Origin: a virus
Reading direction: 5' to 3' (one strand)
Virus record (IMG/VR): IMGVR_UViG_3300028029_000006
Span: 184,236-248,235 of that record
Length of the DNA stretch: 64,000 nt
The position numbers and the translations under genes were made by a program. Under the pieces are notes generated by a model, which ran no database searches, was not told where the DNA came from, and was given only the letters and a program-made list of their open reading frames with translations. This document shows positions 30,313 to 51,214 of the stretch, piece by piece; within the stretch, counting starts at the first letter, position 1; the number at the start of each line of letters is the position of its first letter.

Positions 30313-30353
30313 CAGTAGGTAGCTGGCAAGTTCGATTCTTGCCCTACTTCCCA
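30313..30353 (+). ncRNA. tRNA minihelix-like element (acceptor + T-arm + CCA)
   Basis: AGTAGG/CCTACT stem, GCAAG-TTCGATT-CTTGC T-arm, ends C-CCA. Confidence 0.55.
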
Positions 30354-31030
30354 AGGGACAATGGTGTTCCACATTGTAACCACAACTCCCACAAGGTAGG
30401 GTCATGCGTTTTATCCAGCTGTACTAGGTGCGGCACCCACTAGGGTTTCAGTTATTCCAAAACAAGTCAAGATCTCACTATTCAACGTGGGATGGTTTCG
30501 CAAGCCATGATGCCGCAAGGTCAAGTTGCCAGAGTTAACACTGTCAATCTCGTAATGGGTTGTCACACTAATACTCTCAAACGTTTTTCTTCCGCTAGTG
30601 CGTAGCCAAAGTGGCCAAACTAGGTTGATGTAATTATCAGCGAAGTTGGAAGCGACTAAGTTTTATACGCTTAGCGTTTGAAGTTTTAGAAAGGTGTTCC
30701 GAACCATACCAACGGCTTGGGTGACTCGCTAGTTCTTTGACAATTGAATCATGCAGTGAGTAGGTTAACCGCCTAAGTTCTAATCTTCCTAAGGGAAGCA
30801 CCAAGAATCAAACGGTTAACATTGGGACCGGTATCGGTAAGTCCCCTACAATATTGTTAGTCACTTCTGTATGATCGATGCGTAGGTTAGTTACCTACAT
30901 TGACTCACACGCTCCACAGTTGGGCCAATAAACGGTTATGATAACCTGGTAGGGTTGTTGTGATTATGGTACGAGTGCAACTCTCGTTTGCGTGTGCTGA
31001 CTCATTCACAATTAAGTGTTCGAGTTTAAA
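30354..31030 (+). ncRNA. long structured leader / putative large ncRNA
   Basis: No credible ORF; nested stems and GCAA loops. Confidence 0.5.
30732..30743 (+). promoter_or_regulatory. rrn-type boxA antitermination element
   Basis: GTTCTTTGACAA matches the boxA consensus; lies between structured domains. Confidence 0.55.
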
Positions 31031-31056
31031 CAACAATTCTAAAGAAAGATAATATC

Positions 31057-31329
31057 ATGGCCCGTACAGCAACAACGATTGACAGTGTCCGTAACTTATT
31101 CAACGAAGTCGCACCTAACTTCGAACAGTTTGATGGTGCAACTCTACTTCCGATGAGTAATAATAAGTGTGCTATTCTCAAAGATGGCAAACTTGAAGAG
31201 TACTCATGTTCTTCATTGAAGGCAAGTTTGGAGTTTATCAAGAATCATCTAATGGTTCCGAAAGTTGAATCTGATTATGATTCATCTGATGTTGCTCCAA
31301 TCTCAAGCCCACTTTCTGCTGTTGGTTGA
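31057..31329 (+). CDS. hypothetical protein, first gene of the plus-strand arm
   Basis: AGAAAG upstream of ATG. Confidence 0.7.
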   Translation: MARTATTIDSVRNLFNEVAPNFEQFDGATLLPMSNNKCAILKDGKLEEYSCSSLKASLEFIKNHLMVPKVESDYDSSDVAPISSPLSAVG

Positions 31330-31338
31330 ATTCTAAAA

Positions 31339-31391
31339 AGGTGAGGTGACATAGGCTCACAATGTAGGTTCGACTCCTACCTCACTTTCCA
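31339..31391 (+). ncRNA. anticodon-less tRNA-like RNA
   Basis: 7-bp acceptor AGGTGAG/CTCACTT, one GG-loop hairpin, T-arm GTAGG-TTCGACT-CCTAC, T-CCA. Confidence 0.65.
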
Positions 31392-31422
31392 ATATATCTA
31401 ACCCTAACAGAAGGCACGATTC

Positions 31423-31644
31423 ATGCCAAAAGAGAACGAGAACGACTACGACACGATCAAGCGCGAAGCGCAATTCAAGGCTGACAAGCATGGCTTGTAC
31501 TACCGCATTGAGAAAAGCATGTTTGGGGAATGGGTGTGCCACGCCGTACCATGGCCAAAGAACCAGCACGGTCGAGATCTTGTTGGGGAGCTAGTTAGTC
31601 CTAGCACGTATGTGGAATCCCACTATGCACGGCCATGGTTGTAA
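31423..31644 (+). CDS. hypothetical protein
   Basis: ORF with RBS-like GAAGG. Confidence 0.55.
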   Translation: MPKENENDYDTIKREAQFKADKHGLYYRIEKSMFGEWVCHAVPWPKNQHGRDLVGELVSPSTYVESHYARPWL

Positions 31645-31930
31645 GTGTTCCACATGTGTCGAATCTTTTGACAATGGTAAACGGTTGTATACAGCTGGTT
31701 GCAATTGCAATCATTGTTGGTGGCCAACGCTGGGGAAGGAATCATTGGACATTACCCAACCCGAGTCGTGTCTTTTTGATAAGGGGAAAGTTCAATGAAA
31801 GAATTGAATATCGAATGGTATATAAACTCTTTACTTAATTCCAACGATGTGGATGACATGTTTGATTCGAATGATTCGGATGACATGTTTGATCAATCAA
31901 TTGATTGCGAACGAGATTGCGAGGTTGTTT

Positions 31931-32164
31931 ATGATTATCGAAACCTATAACCGAGAAGATCTTGAAACGAAGCGTGAGCTATTGCCCTGGCAAAAGTTGG
32001 GGCTTTCGTATACAAGTACGGGTTATGGTAAAAAGATACCAACTCCGACCATGGTACGTTTGCCAGGATCACCCCGTTGGCGAAGAGTATATTGTTGCAT
32101 CTTTAGCAACATGGGCACTTGTTATGTTCAAGCCCCAAAGGGTAATTGGATTGTCATTTATTAA
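31931..32164 (+). CDS. conserved phage hypothetical protein
   Basis: GYGKKIPT..WRRVY..SN.GT motif; GAGG RBS. Confidence 0.65.
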   Translation: MIIETYNREDLETKRELLPWQKLGLSYTSTGYGKKIPTPTMVRLPGSPRWRRVYCCIFSNMGTCYVQAPKGNWIVIY

Positions 32165-32181
32165 TTGAAGGAGAAAGTTTC

Positions 32182-32403
32182 ATGTCAGAAGTTATCAAAG
32201 TAAACGAAGTAAAAGAGATGCTTATCACTCGTGATGGTAGCAATTATAAAGCTATCTTGACTTGGAGCGAACCAACTTTTGCTGTTCTTTTTATTAAGAA
32301 CGGTGCTCAAGTTGGTGACTTTCATTATACTGAAGATGAAAGAAAGTTGGCCGATGGTCATGCGGAAGGTTTCCTTTTGGGAAAAAGATGTTGGGAAGAT
32401 TAA
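32182..32403 (+). CDS. hypothetical protein
   Basis: AAGGAGAAAG RBS. Confidence 0.6.
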   Translation: MSEVIKVNEVKEMLITRDGSNYKAILTWSEPTFAVLFIKNGAQVGDFHYTEDERKLADGHAEGFLLGKRCWED

Positions 32404-32432
32404 ACAATATTTCGCAGAACGCCATATCATTA

Positions 32433-32493
32433 AAACATAATGGTTGTGTCTACATGTGTGGATGTGCAAGTTCGATTCTTGTAATGTTTTCAA
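32433..32493 (+). ncRNA. anticodon-less tRNA-like RNA, copy A
   Basis: AAACAT/ATGTTT acceptor, AATGGTT loop, hairpin, GCAAG-TTCGATT-CTTGT. Confidence 0.6.
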
Positions 32494-32526
32494 AGTTGTT
32501 GAAACAATTCACGAAAGGAATTACGT

Positions 32527-33012
32527 ATGTATACAATTCAGATTCTCAAAGGCGGAGTAGCCAAACGCAATCGGGTATTGTCTTATCTTTTGATGCGAAT
32601 GGCAAAAGAAGGCAAGTTCACAGCTAATGTGTTTCATGCTACAGACAAGCGATTGCCTAGCATTCATATTAAGCTAGTTCGTTTGACGAAAGCAAAACCC
32701 TATTGTGGTCAACATCCTGGTGAATGTTTGATCAACCCATTCTTTGGGCCGCAAAAAAAACAAGTAAACAAGTACTTGGAATGGGAGGATTGGATTAAGT
32801 TTCATGCATTCGTAAACCGAGTGTTGAATCGATTCCGAACTCATGCTGATGTGTGGAGTAATCCGCCAGATGCAAAAGGTAAGATGTGGATTCGCAAAGG
32901 AGTGAAACCACGAATCAATTGGGATTGGACGGACACATGGGTGTCTGGTCAAAGGGTTCAACTTTGGAACCAAGGAACGATTGATCAATTCATGTCAGGA
33001 GCAAACCCATAA
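32527..33012 (+). CDS. hypothetical protein
   Basis: GAAAGGA RBS. Confidence 0.7.
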   Translation: MYTIQILKGGVAKRNRVLSYLLMRMAKEGKFTANVFHATDKRLPSIHIKLVRLTKAKPYCGQHPGECLINPFFGPQKKQVNKYLEWEDWIKFHAFVNRVLNRFRTHADVWSNPPDAKGKMWIRKGVKPRINWDWTDTWVSGQRVQLWNQGTIDQFMSGANP

Positions 33013-33250
33013 GGTGTACAATCGTTCTGATATAGTCGATGCTTATTACTGGTACTTTTTACAGTATCATGGTGGGCAAAACTCACATGAATATAAACGT
33101 TTATGTAAGTTGTTAACATATTACAGTCCAAGTCACAGCATGCAGTTTGGCAAGTTATCTTTTAATGCTTGGGGTATCTATGATGGTATTCTTAAGCGTG
33201 AGGGAATTGTTGAATCGCAAGCTGACATTGACTCAAGGGAGCATGAATGA
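32981..33250 (+). CDS. hypothetical protein
   Basis: YHGGQNS..Y.RL phage-type motif. Confidence 0.55.
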   Translation: MINSCQEQTHKVYNRSDIVDAYYWYFLQYHGGQNSHEYKRLCKLLTYYSPSHSMQFGKLSFNAWGIYDGILKREGIVESQADIDSREHE

Positions 33251-33432
33251 ATTATCAAGAACTAATCAATCAAAGTTTGGCGGCAAAGGGAAAAGTCATT
33301 GAAGCGAAAGATGACCAAGTTCTTAGTACTAATCTTAATGCCATGTGTACTCATGCGTCATGGTGTAGGGGTTACTCACTTTACTCTGGAGAAGAAAACG
33401 GAAAGGTTTGGAAAGTCAAACTAACCTTTTGA
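33247..33432 (+). CDS. hypothetical protein
   Basis: ATGA coupling. Confidence 0.55.
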   Translation: MNYQELINQSLAAKGKVIEAKDDQVLSTNLNAMCTHASWCRGYSLYSGEENGKVWKVKLTF

Positions 33433-33628
33433 TTATCATGAACAAAAAAAAGATTGACTACACACGATTTCAACATGCCCTTGGTTATTCTATTGGTGGC
33501 ATGATTGTTTCAATAATTCATCCTAGATTTTTCGATGGTTGTTTTTTGATGATGCTGGTAATGTTGACTCGATGCGGTGCCAATATTATCTATCAAGCCA
33601 TTGAACGTTTGCGAGAAGAGTAAAAGCA

Positions 33629-33925
33629 ATGCAATCAAAAGTTGTAATGATTAATTGGGAAAGTGATCAAACAGGTATCTGTGGTGAGAATTCTTTGGAG
33701 GAAAAGTTTCCTTCTGCTTTTTCTGCTTTGCCCGAACCATATCAAAACGATAATTGTTTGAACTATTACAGCAAAACCGGTGTGTTGTATTGTTGCCCTC
33801 AAAAAAGCGAACAAGCTGCTTTGGGTGTTTGGATATGTTTCTTTAATGAAGCCACTTGTTCATGGGAAGATGAAAACAAAAACAATGTTGATGCGAACTG
33901 TAAAAGTAACAAGTCCTTATGGTAA
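33629..33925 (+). CDS. hypothetical protein, paralog of 39472..39750
   Basis: INW.SDQTG..NSLEEK..ALPE.YQNDNCL shared. Confidence 0.7.
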   Translation: MQSKVVMINWESDQTGICGENSLEEKFPSAFSALPEPYQNDNCLNYYSKTGVLYCCPQKSEQAALGVWICFFNEATCSWEDENKNNVDANCKSNKSLW

Positions 33926-33996
33926 GGGAAGGATTCGTGAATTGTTGGCCGACTTTAAACCATACCATTTGATTTAACAATTAGTTAGGAAAAACA

Positions 33997-34431
33997 ATGC
34001 GACCGAAAATTGTGATGAGGTTTGGTGATGCGGATCCAATTGAACATGGTGGTGGAGTTGTTTGGTATGCTGGCGATTATTGGATTATTCAATTCACTTA
34101 CGGAATTGAGCATGATGCTGAGGCAAAAGGAATTCCAGCGTCTGAACATAAGCCAGATAAATTGATTGTTTACACTGTTTATATAAACCCAGTTGAGTCA
34201 TTGTCGGACCAACTTAATTTAAGTGAATGTGAACCAAACTTATTGTTTGATAATTTTGGGAAGAAAACTAAGTCATCAGTTAAAAAGCTGGCATGTTTGA
34301 ATATGGCCAAAAGTATTAAAATCATTGAAAAGATTGGAACGCTTTTTGGTTGGGATTCATTGAATAAACATCCTGCTTTAGTGAGGGTTTCCGAGCTTGA
34401 CGAATCATGGTTTGGGGAAGAAAAAGAATGA
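33997..34431 (+). CDS. hypothetical protein, paralog of 38927..39472
   Basis: KI.MRFG...G.GVV shared. Confidence 0.65.
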   Translation: MRPKIVMRFGDADPIEHGGGVVWYAGDYWIIQFTYGIEHDAEAKGIPASEHKPDKLIVYTVYINPVESLSDQLNLSECEPNLLFDNFGKKTKSSVKKLACLNMAKSIKIIEKIGTLFGWDSLNKHPALVRVSELDESWFGEEKE

Positions 34432-34510
34432 AGCAATTTATTAATGGTTCTTTGATGTTTTGTCTTGTTTGCACATTGCAAGCATTCATTTCTGTATGTT
34501 GAGATGGTTT

Positions 34511-34565
34511 AAACATAATGGTTATGCATATATGCATGTAAGTTCGATTCTTGCGATGTTTTCAA
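34511..34565 (+). ncRNA. anticodon-less tRNA-like RNA, copy B
   Basis: Homolog of 32433 with compensatory T-stem GTAAG/CTTGC and a different hairpin. Confidence 0.6.
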
Positions 34566-34651
34566 AGGTAGAAACAATTCAAATGTCAACATTGACACTT
34601 TTTTCTTTGACATACTTATTATATAACTATACATTGTAAAAATGTTACAAA

Positions 34652-34735
34652 GGCCAAGTGATGAAACTGGTAAACATAAAGAGCTTAAAACTCTTGGGAC
34701 GCAAGTCCTTATGGGTTCGAGTCCCATCTTGGCTA
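34652..34735 (+). tRNA. trnL: tRNA-Leu(TAA), long variable arm
   Basis: Cloverleaf; AAGAG-CT TAA AA-CTCTT; GGAC-GCAA-GTCC variable arm. Confidence 0.9.
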
Positions 34736-34775
34736 CAAATTAAAGCAAATAAACCAGTAACTAAAGGTAAACAAA

Positions 34776-35126
34776 ATGTGGTATAATTGCAAGTCAGTAA
34801 GTTCAAGTGGAATTATTTCATTCATGTGGAATGAGGAGCATGATTTTTGTCTTCTAAAAGAAAGTCAAAAAGTTCTCAGTTCACTTAGTGGTTCTATTGA
34901 AGGAGTAAGAATATTTGAAGATCATAAGTTTTTAGAAATATCAACTTATGATGGCCACACTGGTTACGATGAACTTTTTGAATTTTACATTTATGAGTGT
35001 AAAGAAGCTAATGTGACTGAATGTAAGATTGCTGAAGAGGAACGTCTTTTAATTGAAAAAATTGAGAAGAAACTGAAAGAGAAAGAAGAAACTGAAAGAA
35101 TTCGCTCAAAAAGGAAAAAAAACTAA
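34776..35126 (+). CDS. hypothetical protein, paralog of 44617..44877
   Basis: WY.CK..I.SF.W..RIF shared. Confidence 0.65.
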   Translation: MWYNCKSVSSSGIISFMWNEEHDFCLLKESQKVLSSLSGSIEGVRIFEDHKFLEISTYDGHTGYDELFEFYIYECKEANVTECKIAEEERLLIEKIEKKLKEKEETERIRSKRKKN

Positions 35127-35211
35127 CAGAAAATGGTATGACGATGGTAAAAACCATCGAAGTAATACGCCAGCAGTAGATATTTCATAAAGATCTATCA
35201 ATAAGGTAGTT

Positions 35212-36564
35212 ATGCAAACAGACAAAGAGTTAAAGACACGTTTGGCAGAGATCAAAGAGCAACGGATTGGTGGTTCGATTGATGCGAATGAGGCCAAGTT
35301 GATGCGAGAAGATGCTTTTCTTGAAAGGAAGGCAGGTCGAGAAGGCCAAGAATGGCAGAATCACAAGAAATCGACATTGCCAACGCAACCAATTTGGAAG
35401 GGTGAGGTATTGGGTTCGGTCAATCCCAAGGAGAAGTTGTTCTTTGATTGTTTGAAACTTCTTAATCTTCTTTTGAAGTCTGGAGTTCGGGATTCGGTTT
35501 CTGGGTCACCCCGAATCAAACATATTCCTGCAACGAGTAAGAAGCAGGCTGGCAAAAAAGTCAGTATTAAGCGAATTAAGAAGGTAAATTACGATGTTCG
35601 CATTCCTGACGGTCATCATATCTTGTTTGCATTGATGCCAAAGAAGGACGGAACTGGGATTCATTCTGAGAAACATGAAGTTTTCAACCCCAACAATTCT
35701 TCTGATCCATTGTTTGCAGCTTACCGAAGGGCAAATCTACTTGAATCTAGCGGTTGGATGTGTGCGATTCTTCGTACTCCTATAAATGGCGAAGCGCCCA
35801 AGGCTGGATGGGGTCCAAAGGATCAAAGTTTGGTTAAGCCTGGGGGTATGATTTGCCGACCTAAAGAGCAGGCGTTGTTTGGTTTGCATAATAAGTTGGC
35901 TGGTCATAAAGCGAAGGGTTCATTGATCAAAGACAGTGAGAGTATGCGTGATTTGATGATTGAGTGTCGCAGGTTGTTGGTTGATGATCGTTACATTGGC
36001 GATGTTGATCTACCTCTTCCTGAGATTGACGGATTGATTGTGTACAATGTTGTATTGGTTGGTCCTATTGTGACTGGGCAGAATGAATTTGAGGATGATG
36101 TATGTATGAATACATTTACTCGGAAAGCTCGTCCTGCGACTAATGTTATTAACAAGGATGGTGCAACAATTCTTGGAAGTGGCCCGAGAATTCGGGCTGA
36201 GCAGATTGCATTGGATATTGGATTGGGCCGAAACGGAACTGTAACTGCACATAGTGTAAGTTATGATTGTCCTGAATTGGGCGAGGTTGTCTTGGTAACT
36301 CGTGGCGAGGCAATCATGAATTTGGCTGAAGAGATTGAGCCAATGACCTTTTTTGAAGGTGGCGAGATTATGGATCTTATTGAATGGGAAGATATGGCGG
36401 TTGATGATCGAATTAAGGCGAGTCGGGGCGAGTTGCCACCACCGCGAGATGTTCAGCAGGTATGTCATCAGCGACAAACGAATGTAAATGGTCCGTGGAT
36501 GAAAGCAAAGGATAGCCGAAAAGGAGGAACTTGGGCAAGGCGAGCTAATTCTCAGGGGTTGTAA
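35212..36564 (+). CDS. large hypothetical protein
   Basis: 450-aa ORF, no recognised motif. Confidence 0.75.
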   Translation: MQTDKELKTRLAEIKEQRIGGSIDANEAKLMREDAFLERKAGREGQEWQNHKKSTLPTQPIWKGEVLGSVNPKEKLFFDCLKLLNLLLKSGVRDSVSGSPRIKHIPATSKKQAGKKVSIKRIKKVNYDVRIPDGHHILFALMPKKDGTGIHSEKHEVFNPNNSSDPLFAAYRRANLLESSGWMCAILRTPINGEAPKAGWGPKDQSLVKPGGMICRPKEQALFGLHNKLAGHKAKGSLIKDSESMRDLMIECRRLLVDDRYIGDVDLPLPEIDGLIVYNVVLVGPIVTGQNEFEDDVCMNTFTRKARPATNVINKDGATILGSGPRIRAEQIALDIGLGRNGTVTAHSVSYDCPELGEVVLVTRGEAIMNLAEEIEPMTFFEGGEIMDLIEWEDMAVDDRIKASRGELPPPRDVQQVCHQRQTNVNGPWMKAKDSRKGGTWARRANSQGL

Positions 36565-36589
36565 AAGAGGAAACAAACGGTAGTGATCA

Positions 36590-36967
36590 ATGATTAAAAG
36601 ACTAAGTCTAACCATTATGTTTTTATCTCTGATTGGTTGCGGAGATTTAAAACTAACAACAAATGATTTCATGGTAACCATTCGTACAAAATGTATTGGA
36701 GAAGAGATAGATAAACGAGCTACTTATATTGTTGCTTGTTCAAAAGCTGCTAATCCTATGAGTGATGAAGAAGAGGAAGATTTGGTTTCAATGTGTAATC
36801 ATACTTCTAAGTTCATCTGTTCAGATCAATGGGTAGTTGCTAAACACCCAACGTCAATGCACCAACCATTTCCTTGTTTTAATGTTCTTGGAATAGCTCG
36901 TAAAGCATGTTTGGAAAAAGGTTGGAATGGTAAAATAGTAGAAGACCTTATCACAAAGAAAAAATAA
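36590..36967 (+). CDS. Cys-rich lipoprotein
   Basis: LIGC lipobox. Confidence 0.65.
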   Translation: MIKRLSLTIMFLSLIGCGDLKLTTNDFMVTIRTKCIGEEIDKRATYIVACSKAANPMSDEEEEDLVSMCNHTSKFICSDQWVVAKHPTSMHQPFPCFNVLGIARKACLEKGWNGKIVEDLITKKK

Positions 36968-37059
36968 TTGATATGCGACTTTAAACTGAAATTATCGATA
37001 AAAACCAAACTTGCCATCTTGGCATTCAAAGATACAAGTTAGTTTACAGGATTGTTGAT

Positions 37060-37275
37060 TTGAAAGGTGATTTGATTCACGAACGAGTATGGTGGGAAGG
37101 ATCATTGGAATTGGTTCGAACTATTGAAGGAGCCATGGTTCTTTTGGGAAAAAAGAAAGTTGAATCAATCTTTGAATCTTGTAAAATTGATTGCCCAGAG
37201 AATAAAGATTTCATTGCTGCTTTGGGAAAGAGCATGAAGAAAGATCATGAAGATTTTGAAAAAAAAATAGGATGA
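37060..37275 (+). CDS. hypothetical protein
   Basis: ORF; start uncertain. Confidence 0.45.
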   Translation: MKGDLIHERVWWEGSLELVRTIEGAMVLLGKKKVESIFESCKIDCPENKDFIAALGKSMKKDHEDFEKKIG

Positions 37276-37282
37276 CAGACTG

Positions 37283-37501
37283 ATGAGTATTGCAGTAAAA
37301 TTAAACAATGCGCTTGGAGCTTTGGCAATGGGTCAGAGCAAGGATTTAATTAATGCCATTAAGTTGGCCCGAAGGTTTAAGAGTTGGAATAACTGGCAGA
37401 AAAACAATATTGGCAAGGTGATTTCAATCTTAACAGATCGAAAGCATATGAGCATGCAAGTACGTGGAAATCTTGCTTTCGAAACCTTTATTGGGATTTA
37501 A
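37283..37501 (+). CDS. hypothetical protein
   Basis: Operonic ORF. Confidence 0.55.
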   Translation: MSIAVKLNNALGALAMGQSKDLINAIKLARRFKSWNNWQKNNIGKVISILTDRKHMSMQVRGNLAFETFIGI

Positions 37502-37506
37502 ACATT

Positions 37507-37716
37507 ATGAAACTATGTGATAAAAACTGTGGTAAAACTGATATCTCTGGTTTCCCGGAAGAAATTGGTTCTTTAATTGAAATTACCAGATTTGGTACTG
37601 ATTCTTTCATAGTTGAGATTTCGAGTGAATCTGGTGATGATAGAATGCAAGCAGTTCTAACCAAGGAAGATTGTTTGGCATTGGGGACTTTGCTTCTTAG
37701 CTTTGCCAATCAATAG
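37507..37716 (+). CDS. hypothetical protein
   Basis: Operonic ORF. Confidence 0.55.
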   Translation: MKLCDKNCGKTDISGFPEEIGSLIEITRFGTDSFIVEISSESGDDRMQAVLTKEDCLALGTLLLSFANQ

Positions 37717-37772
37717 AAAGAGCATCTGCCTACTGGTTTGATTTAAGAAAGAATATTATGAATAATTCTCGT

Positions 37773-38101
37773 GGGCCTCCGGGTATATAGTTATAAATAT
37801 ATAGATAACTAGCTAAAGAAAAGTTAAACCTAATAAATGAGTTAATCTAAATGAGTGTAAACCATGAATAACAGTCGCGGTCCTCCGAGTTAAATTAATA
37901 TGCATAATTAACCTGGACAAGTTATAAAACTGTCCTCAATGTCTCCTTATGGTGGGAGTTGACGCAACCAAGTTGCGAAATAATATTTAAAGACATGGGC
38001 ATTAGCTGGAGAATATGTTAATGTTCATGAAAATGTTGGTTCATTTTTTATTATAGTAGTAACTGTTGACTTCGGAGGTTCAATTCCTCTGGGAGGCTCA
38101 A
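37773..38101 (+). ncRNA. ~330-nt RNA closed by a tRNA-like acceptor/T-arm (tmRNA-like architecture)
   Basis: GGGCCTCC (37773) pairs with GGAGGCTC (38092-99); T-arm GGAGG-TTCAATT-CCTCT; internal hairpins. Confidence 0.45.
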
Positions 38102-38127
38102 GAAAGAAGGTAATTATTAAAAGTGTA

Positions 38128-38511
38128 ATGGAAATAAACTGTTTTGGCAATAAATATTGGAAATTACCAAACGGAGATTTACATAGAGGTAATGACTTAC
38201 CAGCTGTTGAACGTAAAAGTGGAGATAAAGAGTGGTATGTAAATGGGAAACATCATAGAGAGAATAACAAACCAGCTATTGAATATAAAAATGGAGAAAA
38301 GTTTTGGTATGTAAATGGGAAGCCTCATAGAACTGATGGTGCAGCATTTGAAAATGCAAGTGGTCATAAATTATGGTATCTTGAAGGTATTCGTTATTCT
38401 GAAGAAGAGTACAACGAGAAAGTAAAAGGGTATAAATCTGAAGGAACTGAAGAAAACAATTCATATTCTCAAGGGCATATTGATGGTCATTCAGGATTGA
38501 TGTGGTTATGA
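38128..38511 (+). CDS. HRENDLPA-repeat protein with SGLMWL tail
   Basis: Three repeats; 5' part near-identical to 56278. Confidence 0.82.
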   Translation: MEINCFGNKYWKLPNGDLHRGNDLPAVERKSGDKEWYVNGKHHRENNKPAIEYKNGEKFWYVNGKPHRTDGAAFENASGHKLWYLEGIRYSEEEYNEKVKGYKSEGTEENNSYSQGHIDGHSGLMWL

Positions 38512-38513
38512 TT

Positions 38514-38840: not shown

Positions 38841-38841
38841 A

Positions 38842-40083: not shown

Positions 40084-40086
40084 AAT

Positions 40087-41136: not shown

Positions 41137-41210
41137 ACCTCCATAGCTCAGTTGGATAGAGCAAATCTCTTCTAAAGATAAGGTCATCCGTTCGAATCGG
41201 ATTGGAGGTG
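41137..41210 (+). tRNA. trnR: tRNA-Arg(TCT)
   Basis: ACCTCCA/TGGAGGT acceptor; CT TCT AA loop; TTCGAAT T-loop. Confidence 0.9.
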
Positions 41211-41212
41211 CT

Positions 41213-41506: not shown

Positions 41507-41941
41507 ATGAAAAAATGTTGTACTTGCCAAACAGAAAGGAATAAAAAGGATTTTAATAAGAATAAGGCAAAATCAGATGGCCTTAATAGTATTTGTCGAG
41601 CATGTTCGCAAGCGAGAAGTAGGCTCTATTATAGAGAGAATCGCAAGAAACACCTAGCAGTTGTCACAAGAAAAAATAAAAAACGAAGAAAAGAAGTGCA
41701 CCAATTTATCGTTGAGTATTTACAGTTGCACCCATGTGTTGATTGTGGCGAAGGTAATCCGGTGGTTCTTGAATTCGATCATATTAAAGGAGATAAAAAG
41801 GATGCTGTATCGTCTCTCATACAAAGACGATGCAGCATTAATACAATTAAATCTGAAATAGATAAATGCGAAATAAGGTGTGCCAATTGTCATCGAAAGA
41901 AAACAGCTGTTGATTTCAATTGGTATAAACTGGGTTCATAG
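41507..41941 (+). CDS. HNH homing endonuclease
   Basis: CxxC Zn finger; CVDCG..LEFDH..KCEIRCANCHRKKT. Confidence 0.85.
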   Translation: MKKCCTCQTERNKKDFNKNKAKSDGLNSICRACSQARSRLYYRENRKKHLAVVTRKNKKRRKEVHQFIVEYLQLHPCVDCGEGNPVVLEFDHIKGDKKDAVSSLIQRRCSINTIKSEIDKCEIRCANCHRKKTAVDFNWYKLGS

Positions 41942-42005
41942 CCAAGTATGGTAAGGCAGCGGACTTTTAATCCGAAGAGCGGGGGTTCAAATCCCTCTGA
42001 ACCCA
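41932..42005 (+). tRNA. trnK: tRNA-Lys(TTT)
   Basis: GGGTTCA/TGAACCC acceptor; CT TTT AA loop. Confidence 0.9.
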
Positions 42006-42021
42006 CTGAATTAATATTGTT

Positions 42022-42851: not shown

Positions 42852-42895
42852 ATAATTAGTTTTGATAGTTATAAATAAAACAAAAAGGAAATATT

Positions 42896-43956: not shown

Positions 43957-43957
43957 A

Positions 43958-44278: not shown

Positions 44279-44290
44279 TAAAAGGTAAGT

Positions 44291-44611: not shown

Positions 44612-44616
44612 ATAAA

Positions 44617-44877: not shown

Positions 44878-45005
44878 GATGAGTTTAGAGGCTTTAGAGG
44901 GGTTTGGTTTTGAAATTAAGAATGGTTATTACAGGTATTTGTTTTATGATGATAAGCAGAGACACTGATTGATAAATAGATTCTTACCTTAATAGGTAAG
45001 AGTTT

Positions 45006-45078
45006 GGCCATGTATTCCAACGGCAGAGAAAGTCGGCTTAAAACCGATCCAGTGTGGGTTCGACTCCCACCATGGCTA
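45006..45078 (+). tRNA. trnL: tRNA-Leu(TAA), short variable loop
   Basis: GGCCATG/CATGGCT; GTCGG-CT TAA AA-CCGAT; 5-nt variable loop. Confidence 0.85.
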
Positions 45079-45118
45079 CAAAAACAATTTAAAAGAAATA
45101 TAAATAAACAGATCTAAA

Positions 45119-45562
45119 ATGAAAAAAGATGGAGAATCAATGACACCTTTAGAAAAATTAATAGAAAGCAATAAAGAAGATTTTTCAACATCAAATTCTG
45201 GTTGGAGAGCTTTATTGTCTACATGGGATTGGCATACAGTAATAATAAACCTTTATCAAGGTTGGGATCATCCTATCGATGACACCAAAGATGTATCTTT
45301 TGTTATGTTTGAGCATACAGATTCAAATAAATCAAAAGAGATGGCTGGTAGTTTTGATGATATTGCAACTGGTTTGTTTTATTATCGAGATTGGACTCGT
45401 TCTGGTTTGCCATTTACATCAGAAGATGGCGTTTTTTGGTCTGGTTTTTGGTTTCAAAAATTATCTGAAGCTAAAATATTTCATGATATTAATGGTGGAA
45501 TTGTTAATTGGGAAAATGATTTTGAAGAGAAGCGTTTGGCAATGGTTGAAATGGGGTTTTAG
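45119..45562 (+). CDS. hypothetical protein
   Basis: ORF whose stop lies inside the next tRNA. Confidence 0.65.
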   Translation: MKKDGESMTPLEKLIESNKEDFSTSNSGWRALLSTWDWHTVIINLYQGWDHPIDDTKDVSFVMFEHTDSNKSKEMAGSFDDIATGLFYYRDWTRSGLPFTSEDGVFWSGFWFQKLSEAKIFHDINGGIVNWENDFEEKRLAMVEMGF

Positions 45563-45629
45563 CTCAATTGGTTAGAGCACCTAGCTCATAACTAGGATGT
45601 TTCGGGTTCGAACCCCGAAGACCCTACCA
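45553..45629 (+). tRNA. tRNA with CAT anticodon (Ile2 or elongator Met), encoded CCA
   Basis: CCTAG-CT CAT AA-CTAGG; lacks initiator features. Confidence 0.88.
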
Positions 45630-45640
45630 AGAAGGAAAAT

Positions 45641-45991: not shown

Positions 45992-46337
45992 TTTAAAAGT
46001 TGGCGATAAAGTTCGTGTAGTAATAATAAATTCAAATTATGTAGATGTAACATTTGAGTTTAATACATCTGTTATTGATATAGATTTAACAGATTCAACC
46101 GTTCAGGTTAAAGTTAGTGAAGAGGCGAAAATTAAAGGTTTTCTGTTTGATTCTTGGTGGGTATACGTAAACTCCTCAGCTAATTTAATTAAAGGTATGG
46201 GTAAAGTCTTAAGTAGAATTGAAGATGATGTAATTGAAGTTAAAGATAAAAAGAATTTCAGTCCATTAATGAATGATCCATATGGCAAAGGTCCAGAAGG
46301 TGAGACAATGGGGCCATCTGGATTGACGTTTCTTTAA
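45981..46337 (+). CDS. hypothetical protein with SGLTFL tail
   Basis: SH3-like KVGDKVRV start. Confidence 0.6.
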   Translation: MIFDLKVGDKVRVVIINSNYVDVTFEFNTSVIDIDLTDSTVQVKVSEEAKIKGFLFDSWWVYVNSSANLIKGMGKVLSRIEDDVIEVKDKKNFSPLMNDPYGKGPEGETMGPSGLTFL

Positions 46338-46623
46338 GGCAGAAATGAAAATAATTAAAAAGTTAATTATGATTTTATTTTATATTAGCATAATTTTAGG
46401 ATGTGTTGTAGGAATTATTACTTAGCTTGTCTTAGCTAATGTAAGTTTTTAAAAGGAAAAGTTTAGATATGAAATCAGATGATGCTATTGATTTAATTGT
46501 AATAATTTTTTATATTTGTTTCTTGTTTTTGCTTTGTTATGTTGGGGTAACCCATTTTGGTTTAGCTATAGGTCGTGCGGTTGGAATTAGTGCTTGGTTA
46601 ATTCTTATTAAACTCAAGATCTT

Positions 46624-46815
46624 ATGAAGATTGATTTCGAAAATCCAGATGATATTATTTATGAACTGAATAAGCTCATTGATAGATTAAATCATCCTGA
46701 GTTATGTGTTGGCACAACAAGTTTATCTACATCGAACTTGATTAAGTGGAGTAGAATTAAGAAACGGTTTGATGATTTGGTGCTGTTGTTGGAGAATGAT
46801 TTAAAGGATAAGTGA
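46624..46815 (+). CDS. hypothetical protein
   Basis: Operonic ORF. Confidence 0.5.
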   Translation: MKIDFENPDDIIYELNKLIDRLNHPELCVGTTSLSTSNLIKWSRIKKRFDDLVLLLENDLKDK

Positions 46816-46816
46816 T

Positions 46817-47500
46817 ATGGGTTATGATACGTTGGCTTTAAATGAAAAAGGTGAGAGCGTTAATGGTATTTACGTTTCCCCTTATGGTATTGAGGTAGAA
46901 TTTTATAAAAATTGGATCTACATTCGAGACGAGAAAGGTCATGATGAAGATGTTTCTTTTTCCAACAATGTTGTAATGGAGTTTCACGAAGGTCTTATTA
47001 CATACAAAGATACTAATATTGTTTCTGTTAGAGGTCCACAGAATAGTATTTGTGCAGTAATCTGGTCTGGGTATGGTAAAGATGTTACTGGAATGATTGG
47101 TGTTAGTTGTTATGGATATGATAAAGATAAATGGGTTGGGGTTAACGAAGATACTATCAACCATCTAAAAAATGAATTTCTTCTAAAAACTGTTAGAAAA
47201 CGGTTTGCTGTATGTTCATCAGCAAAAACTTTCATTAAAGAGATGAATGAGCATGATAGGAAATATCTTTTTCTTGAAGCTAAAGCAATCAATGGTAATA
47301 CTTTTAATTATGGTCAGTTTAAATATGATTTACCTGAAGAGTTTCGTTACATTGATTTTAATGATGGCTTAAGGTTTAACCAAGGCGACAAGTTTTTCTC
47401 TGACAAGTATGGTATCGATTTGAATTGTACATTGGTTGGTGAATCTAATAAACCTGTGATTGAAGGGTTAATTGAAGGGTTAATTAAAGGAATGAAATGA
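46817..47500 (+). CDS. hypothetical protein
   Basis: 227-aa ORF with AAGGA RBS. Confidence 0.7.
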   Translation: MGYDTLALNEKGESVNGIYVSPYGIEVEFYKNWIYIRDEKGHDEDVSFSNNVVMEFHEGLITYKDTNIVSVRGPQNSICAVIWSGYGKDVTGMIGVSCYGYDKDKWVGVNEDTINHLKNEFLLKTVRKRFAVCSSAKTFIKEMNEHDRKYLFLEAKAINGNTFNYGQFKYDLPEEFRYIDFNDGLRFNQGDKFFSDKYGIDLNCTLVGESNKPVIEGLIEGLIKGMK

Positions 47501-47955
47501 TTGAATATAAAGTAGAAGTATATGAAGGTGGCGAAGTTAATTGGTATCTAAATGATCTGTCTCATAGAGGAGGAGATTTACCAGCCATTGTCCGACCAGA
47601 TGGTCATAAAGAGTGGTGGCTGAATGGTAAACTTCATAGAGATAATGATAAACCTGCTATCATTCACTCAAATGGTAATAAAGAGTGGTATGTAAATGAT
47701 TTGCGTCATAGAAATAACAATTTACCAGCTAATGAACGGACAGACGGATCTAGATTTTGGTATGTGAATGACAAGCTTCATAGAACAGCTGGTCCAGCTT
47801 GTGAGTTTTCAGATGGTCGTAAATCTTGGTTCCTTAAAGGTGTAAAATATTCAGAAGAAGCGTACAACAAGAAAATGAATCTTAATCAAAATTCTTATGA
47901 TGGTAAGATGGTTGAAGTTGATGGTAAAAAATACAAACTAGAAGAGATAGCTTAA
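47497..47955 (+). CDS. HRENDLPA-repeat protein with GKMVEVDGKKYKL tail
   Basis: Four repeats plus tail. Confidence 0.82.
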   Translation: MIEYKVEVYEGGEVNWYLNDLSHRGGDLPAIVRPDGHKEWWLNGKLHRDNDKPAIIHSNGNKEWYVNDLRHRNNNLPANERTDGSRFWYVNDKLHRTAGPACEFSDGRKSWFLKGVKYSEEAYNKKMNLNQNSYDGKMVEVDGKKYKLEEIA

Positions 47956-47958
47956 TTA

Positions 47959-48183
47959 ATGAAAGCTAAAATTGAATCAAACTATGTAGCTCTTCAAGGA
48001 GTTGAGGAGTTACCAAATGATATTGGTGTTATCAAAGTATCTTGTGATGATGCTAATGATTACTTAACAAAACCTTCTGCTCTATCTTTTGGAGATAGGC
48101 TGTATGGCAAGACTGGTTGGAATAGTGATTTGTTTATCTGTTATTATAGAACTGATGCTTGTTTGGCAGAGAAGATTAAGTAA
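47959..48183 (+). CDS. hypothetical protein
   Basis: Operonic ORF. Confidence 0.6.
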   Translation: MKAKIESNYVALQGVEELPNDIGVIKVSCDDANDYLTKPSALSFGDRLYGKTGWNSDLFICYYRTDACLAEKIK

Positions 48184-48200
48184 TTAAGAAAACATAAATT

Positions 48201-48560
48201 ATGAATGATATAATTTGTTTCAGACAAAATAAGTTGGACATGCATTTTGCAGATGATAATCTTTGGATTTGTGATGGAAATTTAACTACATCTTTCTCTA
48301 TGAAAGAAGAAGAGCATCATAAATTTATTGCCCTCTTAAAAAGAGCGCTTAATGAACTTAAAGATGAGGATGATTATATAGATGTGCAAGGGGAAAAATC
48401 CCTTGCCGCAATTATAAATCAAACTGACAGTTATATGATAGAATTGTTTTTTGACAGAAACTTTATTAGTTTTCGTATTAAACATAAAAGAATGGAAGAA
48501 TTTGATGGTTTTATCAAAAAAGGTTTCAATCAAAAATTTAGCCCAGTTTATTTTTTTTAA
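48201..48560 (+). CDS. hypothetical protein
   Basis: Operonic ORF. Confidence 0.6.
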   Translation: MNDIICFRQNKLDMHFADDNLWICDGNLTTSFSMKEEEHHKFIALLKRALNELKDEDDYIDVQGEKSLAAIINQTDSYMIELFFDRNFISFRIKHKRMEEFDGFIKKGFNQKFSPVYFF

Positions 48561-48788
48561 AGAAAAACAGAATTATGAAAAGAAAAAATGTAAAGAAACA
48601 GAACAATATCACTTGGCAATCCGACATTGCCTCTTTGGATAAAGGTCACAAGATTAATTGTGAGAATCCTTTCAATAAGAAAATTAAAAAGTAAATGAAT
48701 AACTTCGATAAGTTAAACGAAGGGCAAAAGGCATACATTAAAACTATGCTAAGTTCTGAGAGTAATGATGCAGCAAAAGAGATTCTAA

Positions 48789-49064
48789 ATGCATTTAGAT
48801 AAGAAAAATGCAGATTGGCATGTTAATTATAGACTAACACTTGGGGCTGTTACTAACACGGTTAAGTATCCTAATTTGGAAAAAGCTGTTAGTAGTATGG
48901 TGTTAATCAGACTTGCAGATGAAATCATTTATGATGTAGAAATTATTAAAACAGTAAACGGAAATCCAACCGTTGTTTATTCTGATGACGATTTAGATGA
49001 AGATTTGGAATTGTTTTACTCTTCAATTGAAGATAAAATTAAAGAAGATGAGCAATATGAGTAA
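48789..49064 (+). CDS. hypothetical protein
   Basis: ORF. Confidence 0.5.
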   Translation: MHLDKKNADWHVNYRLTLGAVTNTVKYPNLEKAVSSMVLIRLADEIIYDVEIIKTVNGNPTVVYSDDDLDEDLELFYSSIEDKIKEDEQYE

Positions 49065-49269
49065 GAATGATAAATGTAATAATTGTGGCTGTGATGATGC
49101 GTATGAATCATACCAAGGGGACATGTTTTGCGAAACATGTTTTGAATCTCAACAATCTTATAGGAAAAGTTCCCGAGGAATGATTGAATTGGAACATGAT
49201 ATGTCAGATTCTTATTATGATTATCCTGGTGATGATTGTGAGTATGACAATCCACAATTCCACATGTAG
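49057..49269 (+). CDS. small Zn-finger protein
   Basis: CNNC..CETC. Confidence 0.55.
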   Translation: MSKNDKCNNCGCDDAYESYQGDMFCETCFESQQSYRKSSRGMIELEHDMSDSYYDYPGDDCEYDNPQFHM

Positions 49270-49368
49270 GAATTATGATTGAAGATTATCATTATGCAAC
49301 GATGTTTCTATCAATGGGATTGAGTTGTTTTATTATTGAACTAGTTAAGTTTCTTTAGAAAGATTAAA

Positions 49369-49710
49369 ATGACATTTGTAAAGGGTGAAGGACAGTTAAG
49401 GCATCAGTTTTTTGGACGATACTCTGCAAGAATCGCAATCGGATTCTCCGATATGAAATCAGCACTTAGTGCTATTGATTTTCTTGTTGGTAAGTGGGAA
49501 GCTATTGAGAATAATGGAAGAGTTGGGATTGTGTTTGAAGGTTCTGATCCTGAACTTAAGAAAGTATTAGATCAACTGGAAGAGTTTGGGGCCCCAAAGG
49601 AAAAAGTTTCTAGCCTCAAATATAGTGTTGATTATGGTGAAATTTTTGAGGTAACTATTCCTGTTACTGCTAAAGAACAAGAGAAATTATGGGGCAGAAT
49701 TCTGAAATAA
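49369..49710 (+). CDS. hypothetical protein
   Basis: AGAAAG RBS. Confidence 0.65.
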   Translation: MTFVKGEGQLRHQFFGRYSARIAIGFSDMKSALSAIDFLVGKWEAIENNGRVGIVFEGSDPELKKVLDQLEEFGAPKEKVSSLKYSVDYGEIFEVTIPVTAKEQEKLWGRILK

Positions 49711-49973
49711 AAGCTGATGATATTCGTTATATGAAATCTTTTTATAAAAAATCTTGGAAAGAAGCGGAAAAAGTTTATATTTTTTGTGTGATTGGAAGCT
49801 GTATAATTTACAGTCTTTCAATCTATTTAGGTGCTAACTATATATACATTATGGTTGGCCAAGCAACCACCATTATAACATTAACTTATCTTTTTAGAAA
49901 AGAAACGAATCGTATAGTGAAATCTGAAATTAAATTCTTGGCGGAAGTAAAAAATGGCACATTTAGATTCTAA
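49689..49973 (+). CDS. membrane protein
   Basis: Two hydrophobic segments. Confidence 0.55.
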   Translation: MGQNSEIKADDIRYMKSFYKKSWKEAEKVYIFCVIGSCIIYSLSIYLGANYIYIMVGQATTIITLTYLFRKETNRIVKSEIKFLAEVKNGTFRF

Positions 49974-50577
49974 AGAAGTTGATATCACTAAGCAAGATAT
50001 TGTAGATGCATTGAGACAACCAGCTAACTTTGCTTATTCTGGTCACAATGAAGACATGTTTCATACTTGGTCATTGGGACCAATTATTTTGAATCATGAT
50101 TCATGCCTTGTTGATGAATCTAATTATGATATGCTTGAGAAACATCTTGAATCTGATGAAAGTTTATCAGAAGAGTGGGCAATTACTAGGTGTTCATTTT
50201 GGGGTGATGGTTGGGTTGATCATATTAGTTTTCGAGCTATCGAAGATTTTAAAAATGATGATGACCCAAAGGTTCCAACGAGAATTTTCCGAGTGTTAAC
50301 AGAATGGTTTGATACATTAAAAGAATCTTTTATTCTCAATGAGATTGATTATAGTAACAAGATTTTTGAAGCTACAATTGAAAATATTGGTAACGTTGGT
50401 CTTTGTATGACCAAAGATGAGATTCCAGATGATTGGATTAGCAAATGTTATTCTTGGTTTGAATCTAATTGTCCTAATGAGATTGAGGACACAGATGGTT
50501 TCGGTGGTTATCCAAGCGATGATAAAATGAAAGAGTGTTTGGGTGAGTTGGGTTTTCTAGAAGAGGAAGGTTATTAA
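49954..50577 (+). CDS. conserved phage hypothetical protein
   Basis: DS..ESNY..W.DGWVD..L.E.DYS pattern. Confidence 0.7.
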   Translation: MAHLDSKEVDITKQDIVDALRQPANFAYSGHNEDMFHTWSLGPIILNHDSCLVDESNYDMLEKHLESDESLSEEWAITRCSFWGDGWVDHISFRAIEDFKNDDDPKVPTRIFRVLTEWFDTLKESFILNEIDYSNKIFEATIENIGNVGLCMTKDEIPDDWISKCYSWFESNCPNEIEDTDGFGGYPSDDKMKECLGELGFLEEEGY

Positions 50578-50859
50578 ATGTATACTTATATTATTGGTTT
50601 TATTGTTAATTTAATTCTTATGGCAGTAATTATTAGATGGTTACCTATTGGTAAGTTAGCAAGGCTTGTAATTAAAACAGCTGAAAATGATGCAGCTAAA
50701 GCTCATTTTACTATTATGATAATTGGAGGGCCAATTACTGTATTTGCTATATTTTTTTACACATTTTTCAATCTAATTGCTTTTCCAAAGGAGAAAACAA
50801 TCCCTGAAGTAGAAGAGAAGAAGAGCGAATATAGAGACTGTGCTAAAAAAGAAAGTTAG
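50578..50859 (+). CDS. membrane protein
   Basis: Two hydrophobic segments. Confidence 0.6.
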   Translation: MYTYIIGFIVNLILMAVIIRWLPIGKLARLVIKTAENDAAKAHFTIMIIGGPITVFAIFFYTFFNLIAFPKEKTIPEVEEKKSEYRDCAKKES

Positions 50860-50919
50860 GACGAAACATGCTTTGATTAGCATGTATAATGGTATGAAGC
50901 CTTTACTGATGAGTCCCAA
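50856..50919 (+). ncRNA. type II hammerhead ribozyme
   Basis: GGAC-GAAA-CATGCT/AGCATG-TA-stem I-CTGATGA-GTCC; complete core; predicted cleavage after GUA at 50886. Confidence 0.88.
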
Positions 50920-51102
50920 ATCACGCACGTATGCACAACAACTTAGTTAAGATAATCTGATTAAGTTGGGTTGCGGTTTATGTAATTATCTTGGGAGATA
51001 TTTATGTGAGCGAGGTAGAGGTGAAAAAACTGTTAACAACAATGATGATAGATTGTTAATTGGCCACAAGATCATCTGGCATTCATGCATGAGTGTCATT
51101 AT

Positions 51103-51214
51103 GCCTGACTGGTTTGTGGAGTTGTATTGATTTCCGGGTTTTGTTATATTCATAGATGCACTTGCTTTGATTTTCAATACGATTTTATCGAAGGTTCAAA
51201 TCCTTTGACAGGCT
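51103..51214 (+). ncRNA. anticodon-less tRNA-like RNA with long central stem
   Basis: GCCTGAC/GACAGGC acceptor; GTTGTATTGA/TCAATACGAT stem; GAAGG-TTCAAAT-CCTTT. Confidence 0.55.

Follow-up and report, generated by a model that had tools for sequence, protein, structure and literature searches.

Anticodon-less, tRNA-derived elements between the genes of a large bacteriophage as candidate RNase P and RNase Z processing signals

Introduction

In plant mitochondria, t-elements are non-canonical, transfer RNA (tRNA)-like folds consisting of a T-arm and an acceptor-like stem, which lie beside open reading frames (ORFs) in a genome where genuine tRNAs also punctuate messenger RNAs (mRNAs). They were found by the T-arm motif GGTTCRANYCC and direct cuts by ribonuclease (RNase) P and RNase Z that form mRNA ends; these cuts were mapped at the ends of the elements, and the excised RNAs gain non-encoded C or A residues (PMC1920247). 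Here, we describe six elements of similar anatomy (e30313, e31339, e32433, e34511, e37941 and e51103) in a 64,000-nucleotide stretch of viral DNA, hereafter the window, which represents positions 184236-248235 of IMG/VR record IMGVR_UViG_3300028029_000006 (409,147 bp, estimated completeness 96%). In contrast to the plant t-elements, these elements belong to a bacteriophage, whose host would supply a bacterial, RNA-based RNase P, and they are of independent descent; several of them also have large or branched central arms, together with a bias toward U at the discriminator position (U73).

A second precedent is provided by tRNA punctuation of polycistronic transcripts and the MALAT1 mascRNA: RNase P and RNase Z cut at a tRNA-shaped module embedded in a long transcript, by which the ends of the adjacent RNAs are set and a small tRNA-like RNA is freed (PMC4919913). 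RNase P gauges its substrate along the acceptor/T-arm stack and docks on the elbow (PMC4919913). Those modules are mitochondrial or nuclear and cloverleaf-like, whereas the phage elements are top-half modules that would encounter bacterial-type enzymes and, unlike mascRNA and the t-elements, are known from sequence alone. Full-text literature searches, with subscription literature outside their coverage, found no description of such elements in phages.

YrlA-type Y RNAs, which occur in phages, likewise mimic tRNAs by means of a T-arm and an acceptor-like stem but have no anticodon, and in the YrlA RNA of Mycobacterium smegmatis a 7-bp acceptor with a T-arm suffices for RNase P cutting and CCA addition (PMC4201824). 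In these RNAs, a Ro60-binding helix replaces the anticodon stem, a D-arm is present and the acceptor is usually closed; they are encoded within 4 kb of the Ro60 gene on the same strand (PMC4201824). Membership of the phage elements in this family was considered and rejected: the handle TTACAAGCA followed by a tRNA-like T-arm was found only at 365.3-366.0 kb of the genome (minus strand, four copies), approximately 130-150 kb from the window elements, and the sole copy of TTACAAGCA in the window (12854) lies about 17 kb upstream of the first element with no T-arm after it. We therefore kept the window elements, with their open acceptor ends and no handle, apart from the YrlA-like handle RNAs.

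Two further comparisons concern the layout of the elements. As in transfer-messenger RNA (tmRNA), an acceptor and T-arm are combined in e37941 and e51103 with a D-loop analogue that lacks a D-stem and a long insert at the anticodon arm. Unlike tmRNA, they have U73 rather than A73 and no G3-U70 pair, no tag frame or set of pseudoknots was identified, and they are far shorter; ARAGORN found no tmRNA in the genome, and the Rfam tmRNA model RF00023 yielded only an 11-nt T-loop match of 6.7 bits. The three elements of 50-60 nt (e31339, e32433 and e34511) resemble D-arm-lacking and otherwise truncated mitochondrial tRNAs in having a short connector instead of a D-arm, but the latter keep a 7-nt anticodon loop and still decode.

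Results

The six elements were recognized by reading of the sequence and by a genome-wide descriptor scan, which found in each a perfect 5-bp T-stem, closed by G53/C61 around a G-TTCRANN-C loop. The 5' strands of these T-stems start at 30326, 31364, 32466, 34538, 38074 and 51190 (+ strand), and the loops read TTCGATT, TTCGACT, TTCAATT or TTCAAAT. Directly downstream of each T-arm lies a 7-nt acceptor 3' strand, followed by the discriminator N73 (in order C, U, U, U, U, U) and then by CCA, CCA, CAA, CAA, CAA and CTA, respectively. A first-pass annotation of the window had described this tRNA 3' geometry, a U discriminator in five elements, and an intergenic location on the sense strand; all three descriptions held for the six elements listed here, every one of which lies on the + (gene) strand between credible ORFs.

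The strict T-arm motif occurs 31 times on the two strands of the 409-kb genome, as compared to 1.57 ± 1.31 occurrences (maximum 5) in 100 composition-matched simulations. Nineteen of these T-arms are inside tRNAs called by ARAGORN, and the other 12 all lie on the gene strand of two tRNA-bearing arms. U73 is present in five of the six elements but in only about two or three of the 21 ARAGORN tRNAs (Gly, Thr and an odd 'Phe-aaa'). C74 follows in all six, as in the real tRNA genes of the phage, and the position preceding the acceptor (-1) is U in four of them (A in e31339 and e32433) and in 13 of the 21 real tRNAs. The t-element motif GGTTCRANYCC is present in three elements and AGTTCGATTCT in the other three.

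A 5' partner that forms six or seven of the seven possible acceptor pairs is available in every element. To judge these partners, we asked how often an equally good partner for the same 3' heptamer arises in random 150-nt windows of the gene arm, which gave p values, in element order, of 0.23, 0.024, 0.44, 0.29, 0.025 and 0.054. The combined p value (Fisher) was 0.006, or 0.02 when each pair of paralogous elements was counted once (four lineages). Support for the acceptor helix is thus real though modest. The tRNA-like fold is the minimum free energy (MFE) structure or lies within 0.8 kcal of it for four elements; the MFE structure of e51103 retains the same acceptor and T helices, and the tRNA-like fold of e34511 lies 2.3 kcal above the MFE.

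None of the six was called by ARAGORN. The Rfam tRNA model RF00005, which has a gathering cut-off of 29 bits, matched e32433 at 16.2 bits, e31339 at 15.1 and e51103, through its T-arm only, at 12.1, and did not match the other three; no other Rfam family, including tmRNA, group I intron and hammerhead, matched at E<=10. The T-arm and acceptor 3' anatomy is real and the elements escape both programs, so we regard them as tRNA-type 3' parts and not as tRNA genes. None of them has the 5-bp stem and U33-containing 7-nt loop of a canonical anticodon arm; e30313 has only a 6-nt connector there, and the arms of e37941 and e51103 are long and irregular. Decoding is implausible, because the corresponding loops of e32433 and e34511 measure only 4 nt, and the 7-nt loop of e31339 lacks U33 and is carried by a 4-bp stem. 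The earlier description of the D/anticodon region as replaced needs qualification, since e31339 keeps a hairpin with a 4-bp stem and a 7-nt loop and e32433 an alignable residual D-arm.

The simplest element, e30313 (30314..30353, +), is a bare minihelix. Its 6-bp acceptor is formed by AGTAGG (30314-30319) and CCTACT (30343-30348), with a 6-nt connector after the 5' strand, the T-arm at 30326-30342, C73 at 30350 and an encoded CCA at 30351-30353, and the minihelix is its MFE fold. In e31339 (31339..31391, +, 53 nt), a 7-bp acceptor, AGGTGAG/CTCACTT with one G-U pair, encloses a 4-bp hairpin whose 7-nt loop, CATAGGC, has A at position 33; AAT, the T-arm (31364-31380), U73 (31388) and an encoded CCA (31389-31391) follow. 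This fold is also the MFE structure, and the element scores 15.6 bits against the tRNA-Sec model. It begins 9 nt past a stop codon at 31329 and ends 31 nt ahead of the ATG at 31423.

The next two elements are paralogs with 80% identity over approximately 95 columns. In e32433 (32432..32511, +), the acceptor strands are AAAACAT (32432-32438) and ATGTTTT (32484-32490); the connector AATGGTT, with a D-loop-like GG, leads to a 6-bp hairpin with a 4-nt loop, and the T-arm (32466-32482) is followed by a U at 32490, CAA and the conserved tail GAAACAATTCA (32501-32511). Its tRNA-like fold is the MFE structure, and the element lies 32 nt upstream of the ATG (32527) of a conserved gene for a 161-amino-acid protein. 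The tRNA model can also be threaded through e32433 from end to end as a cloverleaf whose D-stem has 4 bp and whose 'anticodon' loop has 4 nt, which shows how the element arose. The paralog e34511 (34511..34581, +) has a 6-bp acceptor, AAACAT/ATGTTT, the same connector AATGGTT, a palindromic hairpin, the T-arm at 34538-34554, U73 at 34562, CAA and the tail GAAACAATTCA at 34571-34581. It lies upstream of a promoter-like site, TTGACA-17-TACATT, that precedes a genuine tRNA-Leu. The AT-rich strands of both elements are ambiguous in the strict 7/5 register and perfect in a 7/6 register, and in both the tail can pair with the acceptor 3' strand in place of the 5' strand. The two differ by three wobble-compatible stem changes, and their central hairpins differ in sequence yet both pair. 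The compensatory T-stem changes claimed for this pair proved to be one-sided wobble changes only (G-U to G-C and C-G to U-G), not double substitutions.

The last two elements form a second pair of paralogs, with 25 of 30 positions identical in the 3' part and unrelated central arms. The acceptor of e37941 (37941..38101, +) consists of GTCTCCT (37941-37947) and GGGAGGC (38091-38097), which form seven pairs, two of them G-U. A connector, TATGGTG, and a branched central arm of approximately 120 nt make up the 126 nt between acceptor and T-stem, and the T-arm (38074-38090) is followed by U73 (38098) and CAA, with N73 29 nt before the ATG at 38128. In e51103 (51103..51217, +), the acceptor strands GCCTGAC (51103-51109) and GACAGGC (51207-51213) leave one A.A mismatch; the connector TGGTTTGT and a long central hairpin make up the 80 nt between acceptor and T-stem, and the T-arm (51190-51206) precedes U73 (51214) and CTA, with N73 again 29 nt before an ATG (51244). 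Between the two elements, T-stem pair 50-64 changes from G-C to A-T and acceptor pair 5-68 from G-C to C-G. In both pairs of paralogs, the helices have been kept and the middle replaced, an observation limited to two pairs that were found via intact T-arms.

The first-pass annotation had recognized the T-arm at 38074 but had begun this element at 37775, where the sequence reads GCCTCCG. We place its 5' end at 37941, because the motif TGGT...GGAGTTG that follows is common to e51103. The rival 5' partner is GGGCCTCC at 37773-37780, within the first of two micro-ORFs described below; the two pairings are still competitors, with 37941 favoured on sequence grounds. A weaker candidate at 30906..30997 (+), formerly listed as a member, was rejected. 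Its 7-bp outer helix (CACACGC/GCGTGTG, around approximately 77 nt) encloses an inner hairpin, ACGAG-TGCAACT-CTCGT, which is separated from the outer strand by a 2-nt spacer and is not a T-arm, and the tRNA model found no match at E<=10 in a 1.5-kb search.

The T-arm of e30313 is identical at 17 of 17 positions to that of the CUA suppressor tRNA of the phage (genome 250663-250734, +), from which the T-arms of e32433 and e34511 differ by one or two wobble-compatible changes. The degenerate 3' pattern of e37941 and e51103 has a single match in IMG/VR, a genuine U73 tRNA on contig L017, and was absent from 185,579 prokaryote genomes (GTDB) and from the JGI metagenome set. This tRNA reads GCCTGAC in its 5' strand, AGAGG-TTCAAAT-CCTTT in the T-arm and GTTAGGC in its 3' strand, followed by U73; e51103 shares its 5' strand exactly and is near-identical to it in the T-arm and 3' strand. 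The elements therefore descend from phage tRNA genes. They had been taken for one dispersed family, and the sequence comparisons point instead to at least four tRNA-derived lineages. U73 may be partly inherited, because the tRNA-Thr and tRNA-Gly of the phage itself carry it.

The elements share their surroundings with genuine tRNA genes. The phage DNA has a GC content of approximately 31%, and near 29-30 kb of the window the coding strand flips from minus to plus, after which small plus-strand ORFs without assigned function continue to the end of the window. ARAGORN identified 21 tRNAs in the genome, including the CUA suppressor, of which six are in the window and were all confirmed by Rfam. 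Single tRNAs lie between ORFs of this arm at 34652-34736 (+; tRNA-Leu(UAA)), 41137-41211 (tRNA-Arg), 45006-45079 (tRNA-Leu) and 60541-60614 (tRNA-Arg), and tRNA-Lys (41932-42006) and tRNA-Met (45553-45629) each overlap the last 10 nt of the upstream ORF. Start codons occur 12-40 nt downstream of the tRNAs at 34652, 45006 and 45553. Because they are wedged between ORFs or overlap them, the real tRNAs of the arm must be excised from mRNAs. A similar spacing is seen in four of the elements (e31339, e32433, e37941 and e51103), in which N73 lies 26-32 nt ahead of the next start codon, with a ribosome-binding site in between. The frequency of sigma70-like promoters and of terminators was not above that in shuffled sequences, a result that fits long transcripts and is no proof of them. 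The genome encodes a PolyA_pol/CCA-type nucleotidyltransferase, and neither Rnl2 (Pfam) nor RtcB was found in it. The best tblastn matches of one window protein are from jumbo phages of Listeria, Bacillus and Clostridium, which weakly suggests a host in the Bacillota.

Most of the neighbouring genes offer little for comparison with relatives. Megablast of 30000-38000 and blastn of 30200-31056 against GenBank phages gave no match, and relatives sought via a 450-amino-acid ORF were not found. The only conserved neighbour is the 161-amino-acid protein (32527-33012, +), with 69 homologues at 39-78% identity; its own gene neighbours are conserved in no contig that was retrieved. Residues W86, D88, W89, N148, G150, Q154 and F155 are invariant, and an AlphaFold model (pLDDT 90) has a generic tandem ferredoxin-like fold for which structural matches were uninformative (best Foldseek E 0.1, best VIA Z-score 6.7).

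In one contig with a homologue of 68% identity (L019), the slot of e32433 is taken by a genuine tRNA-Leu(UAA) gene that is interrupted by a group I intron, which Rfam recognized at 78 bits (E 2.5e-19). The gene occupies 229-575 of ENA contig k141_2764548, and its terminal ACCA lies 12 nt from the start codon of the homologue; a 13-nt repeat of its 5' end is found approximately 105 nt upstream. In L011/L015 and L013, tRNAs lie just downstream of the homologue. The site around this gene is thus a tRNA slot in the clade, which in the window is occupied by an anticodon-less derivative. The possibility that the elements themselves are tRNAs with a group I intron was rejected, as neither window positions 29000-52500 nor the excised elements matched RF00028 at E<=10.

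Weak or T-arm-only matches to the tRNA model were also obtained in two larger relatives, G003 (392 kb) and G001. Those examined in G003 (L020-L024) are permuted, with a loop-closed acceptor and a GAATGC..GACTACA handle ahead, followed in L020 by a D-arm, a YrlA-like layout. In G001 (L026/L036), the tRNA-like repeats are full-length, have non-canonical bodies and lie together in a single intergenic region of 500 nt. There (L036:3821-4365; IMG/VR 3300035663_000001, 27820-28365), three tRNA-like modules form an array with the common T-arm GTAGG-TTCGATT-CCTAC, each preceded by a repeated ACAGAATGGTTTCTGT hairpin that looks like an acceptor 5' strand plus D-arm; the acceptor GACTCAG/CTGAGTC is common to the first and third modules only. 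A distant relative contains a 100-nt tRNA-like gene that ARAGORN did not call (L010:13577-13792); its acceptor has 7 bp, its discriminator is G73 and its CCA is encoded. On either side of this gene lie direct repeats that consist of AAGGTCCTTCCTTCTAA and approximately 60 further similar bases. The phage genome itself has further tRNA-like genes missed by ARAGORN outside the window, at 256537-256616 (+), 393208 (-) and 384345 (-). One of these has an 8-bp acceptor and a degenerate T-stem; another is full-length, with the 'anticodon' loop shrunk to 3 nt, and abuts tRNA-Leu(UAG).

Several local features adjoin the elements. A genome-wide pattern scan found tandem sigma54-type promoter motifs (TGGCAY-N5-NTGCA) at the head of the plus-strand arm, TGGCAT-N5-CTGCA at 30226-30243 and TGGCAC-N5-GTGCA at 30279-30296 (both +), which are the only two in the 409-kb genome. 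The predicted transcription start lies approximately 8 nt before e30313, which opens a 700-nt, ORF-free region of 45% GC that folds better than shuffled sequences (z=-2.9) and has no match in Rfam and no similarity in GenBank phages. Upstream of e37941, two micro-ORFs, 37758-37790 (MNNSRGPPGI*) and 37865-37894 (MNNSRGPPS*), both on the + strand, share eight residues despite four synonymous codon differences. The GGGCCTCC segment in the first complements positions 38092-38099, at the 3' end of e37941; in the MFE structure of 37750-38104 (z=-3.7), it pairs with GGAGGCTC. The micro-ORFs and this 3' end may form a leader-peptide or arrest-peptide switch. The gene downstream (38128-38511) belongs to a paralogous family of proteins of about 90-145 amino acids with at least 25 other sites in the genome (e.g., window 19358, 21383, 27553, 38526, 42104, 47602, 56290, 62586 and 63415). 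Paralogs of the 38128 copy have 48-78% identity to it, PF20530 is found in some metagenomic relatives, and several members adjoin tRNAs or tRNA-like elements.

Downstream of e51103, the ORF at 51244-51477 (+) matches only residues 2-62 of the RNA ligase phrog_548, including motif I (KLHGTN), and the remainder of the ligase was found nowhere in the genome; this N-terminal fragment of 62 residues was the sole ligase-like match. The same frame continues with a GC-rich stretch of about 200 nt (51478-51693) and then an ORF for an unrelated repeat protein (51694-52233). From its sequence, this ORF is a truncated or disrupted RNA-ligase gene. A putative type II hammerhead ribozyme at 50856-50919 (+), which has the CUGAUGA and GAAAC boxes, found no support in a 1.5-kb search, in which no Rfam hammerhead family matched at E<=10.

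Discussion

Our favoured interpretation, to which we assign a probability of roughly 45%, is that the six elements are t-element-like signals for RNase P and RNase Z, derived from tRNA genes and placed in tRNA-like slots, because they keep the features that these enzymes read and sit where real tRNAs do. Their motifs, tRNA descent, strand, positions and foldability can be read directly from the DNA, and from these we infer that they are transcribed and cleaved and may benefit the phage. The modules would have lost the anticodon loop, and mostly the D-stem, while retaining the half read by end-processing enzymes, namely the coaxial stack of acceptor and T-arm; in four of them, a GG-containing connector could rebuild the elbow. 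Transcribed within the multi-gene messages of the arm, they would be recognized like the interspersed real tRNAs. The cut at the 5' border of the acceptor helix would be made by RNase P, and the one after N73 by RNase Z, or by exonucleases in the two elements that have an encoded CCA. These cuts would separate an upstream message from a downstream one starting 26-32 nt before its start codon, and the released small tRNA-like RNA could be tailed by a CCA-adding enzyme.

Punctuation of this kind had been suggested by the first-pass annotation, and the anatomy, N73-C74 and the slots agree with it. Several observations weigh on the other side. The acceptor contains a mismatch in four of the six elements, and three of the 5' partners are individually no better than expected by chance. 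In e34511, the competing fold with the paired tail is the MFE structure, and the element lies behind a weak terminator-like hairpin (34466-34484). Because the elements were ascertained by their intact T-arms, their apparent 'perfection' and the T-stem covariation are inflated. Exact-pattern scans of IMG/VR, JGI metagenomes and GTDB genomes found no orthologues. In L002, L004 and L006, in which the homologue of the 161-amino-acid protein has 62-71% identity, the upstream gene abuts the homologue and there is no element. The flanking ORFs of 73 and 90 amino acids are ORFans, and the 127-amino-acid protein is one of at least 25 paralogs. Finally, the truncated ligase beside e51103 indicates that decay occurs in the region.

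Several of these observations suit the strongest competing explanation, which we regard as unlikely yet deserving of serious weight. According to it, the elements are neutral remnants, either decaying or partly deleted tRNA genes or partial 3' duplications in an arm with fast turnover, and any cutting by RNase P and RNase Z is incidental. Lineage specificity, heterogeneous bodies, mismatched acceptors and weak 5' partners would be expected of such remnants, as would a truncated gene alongside, and intact T-arms are what the search selected for. The alignment of the whole of e32433 to the tRNA model, with a shrunken anticodon loop, and the degenerate tRNA-like genes elsewhere in the genome (256537, 384345 and 393208) also favour decay. 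Phage genomes, however, delete junk quickly, and despite this both acceptor strands persist around inserts of 6-126 nt. Within the paralog pairs, the changes preserve structure, while the central parts have been exchanged. Moreover, a model-based scan that did not require a perfect T-stem found few remnants with broken T-arms, and the regular spacing of 26-32 nt to the next start codon in four elements likewise argues against neutrality.

The processing-signal interpretation overlaps in part with the two remaining alternatives. In the first, which seems improbable to us, the excised, CCA-tailed RNAs would themselves be the product that matters and would act in trans as tRNA mimics. Such mimics could serve as a sponge or decoy for proteins that read the acceptor end or the elbow, or as the partner of a phage ribonucleoprotein; the proteins decoyed could include acceptor-targeting toxins, nucleotidyltransferases and enzymes that use aminoacyl-tRNA. 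U73 in five of six elements, combined with C74, resembles an identity signal that the elements share and the real tRNAs rarely have, the GG connectors could form an elbow, and the phage has its own CCA-type nucleotidyltransferase. The same genome encodes the separate family of tRNA-shaped RNAs with the TTACAAGCA handle, and the M. smegmatis YrlA RNA is both cut by RNase P and CCA-tailed (PMC4201824). On the other hand, the window elements have no such handle, and the handle-bearing RNAs of relatives have, unlike them, a permuted layout that includes a D-arm and a closed acceptor. The elements are neither linked to a partner gene nor conserved across genomes. Decoys for tRNA-targeting defences had been proposed at the outset, and the part of that proposal concerning anticodon nucleases is excluded, because the elements have no anticodon loop.

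In the second alternative, which we consider less probable still, the elements would be cis-acting leaders rather than cut sites, their T-arm hairpins controlling or stabilizing the downstream message: e30313 would be a 5' stabilizer of the sigma54 transcript, e37941 part of an attenuator with the micro-ORFs, and e34511 and e32433 an ATGTTTT switch. The position of e30313 just past the predicted sigma54-type start and at the head of a well-folding region, the GGGCCTCC-GGAGGCTC pairing in the MFE structure, and a conserved downstream GAAACA that competes for the acceptor 3' strand in e32433 and e34511 are consistent with such roles. They leave unexplained the exact T-arms, the tRNA-like N73-C74 and the shared descent from tRNAs, and they find no comparative support, the alternative pairings being without covariation.

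A broader proposal, equally speculative, would combine cutting with action in trans. The phage would make 'top-half' tRNAs with a U73-C74 identity, cut by host RNase P and RNase Z and tailed by the phage CCA enzyme, as a widespread and hitherto undescribed layer of expression control and counter-defence. The freed RNAs might soak up defence proteins that attack or modify acceptor ends, or might be charged for use outside the ribosome, while the cutting would also determine how stable each downstream message is.

If the elements are cut as processing signals, the phage would organize its multi-gene messages in the style of mitochondria, with tRNA-shaped punctuation converted from spare tRNA genes. 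This would account for the abundance of tRNA-like debris in large phage genomes, and it would allow the mRNA ends of uncultured phages to be predicted by rule. The small tRNA-like RNAs that are released would form an additional class, for which CCA tailing, charging and protein binding would be at issue.

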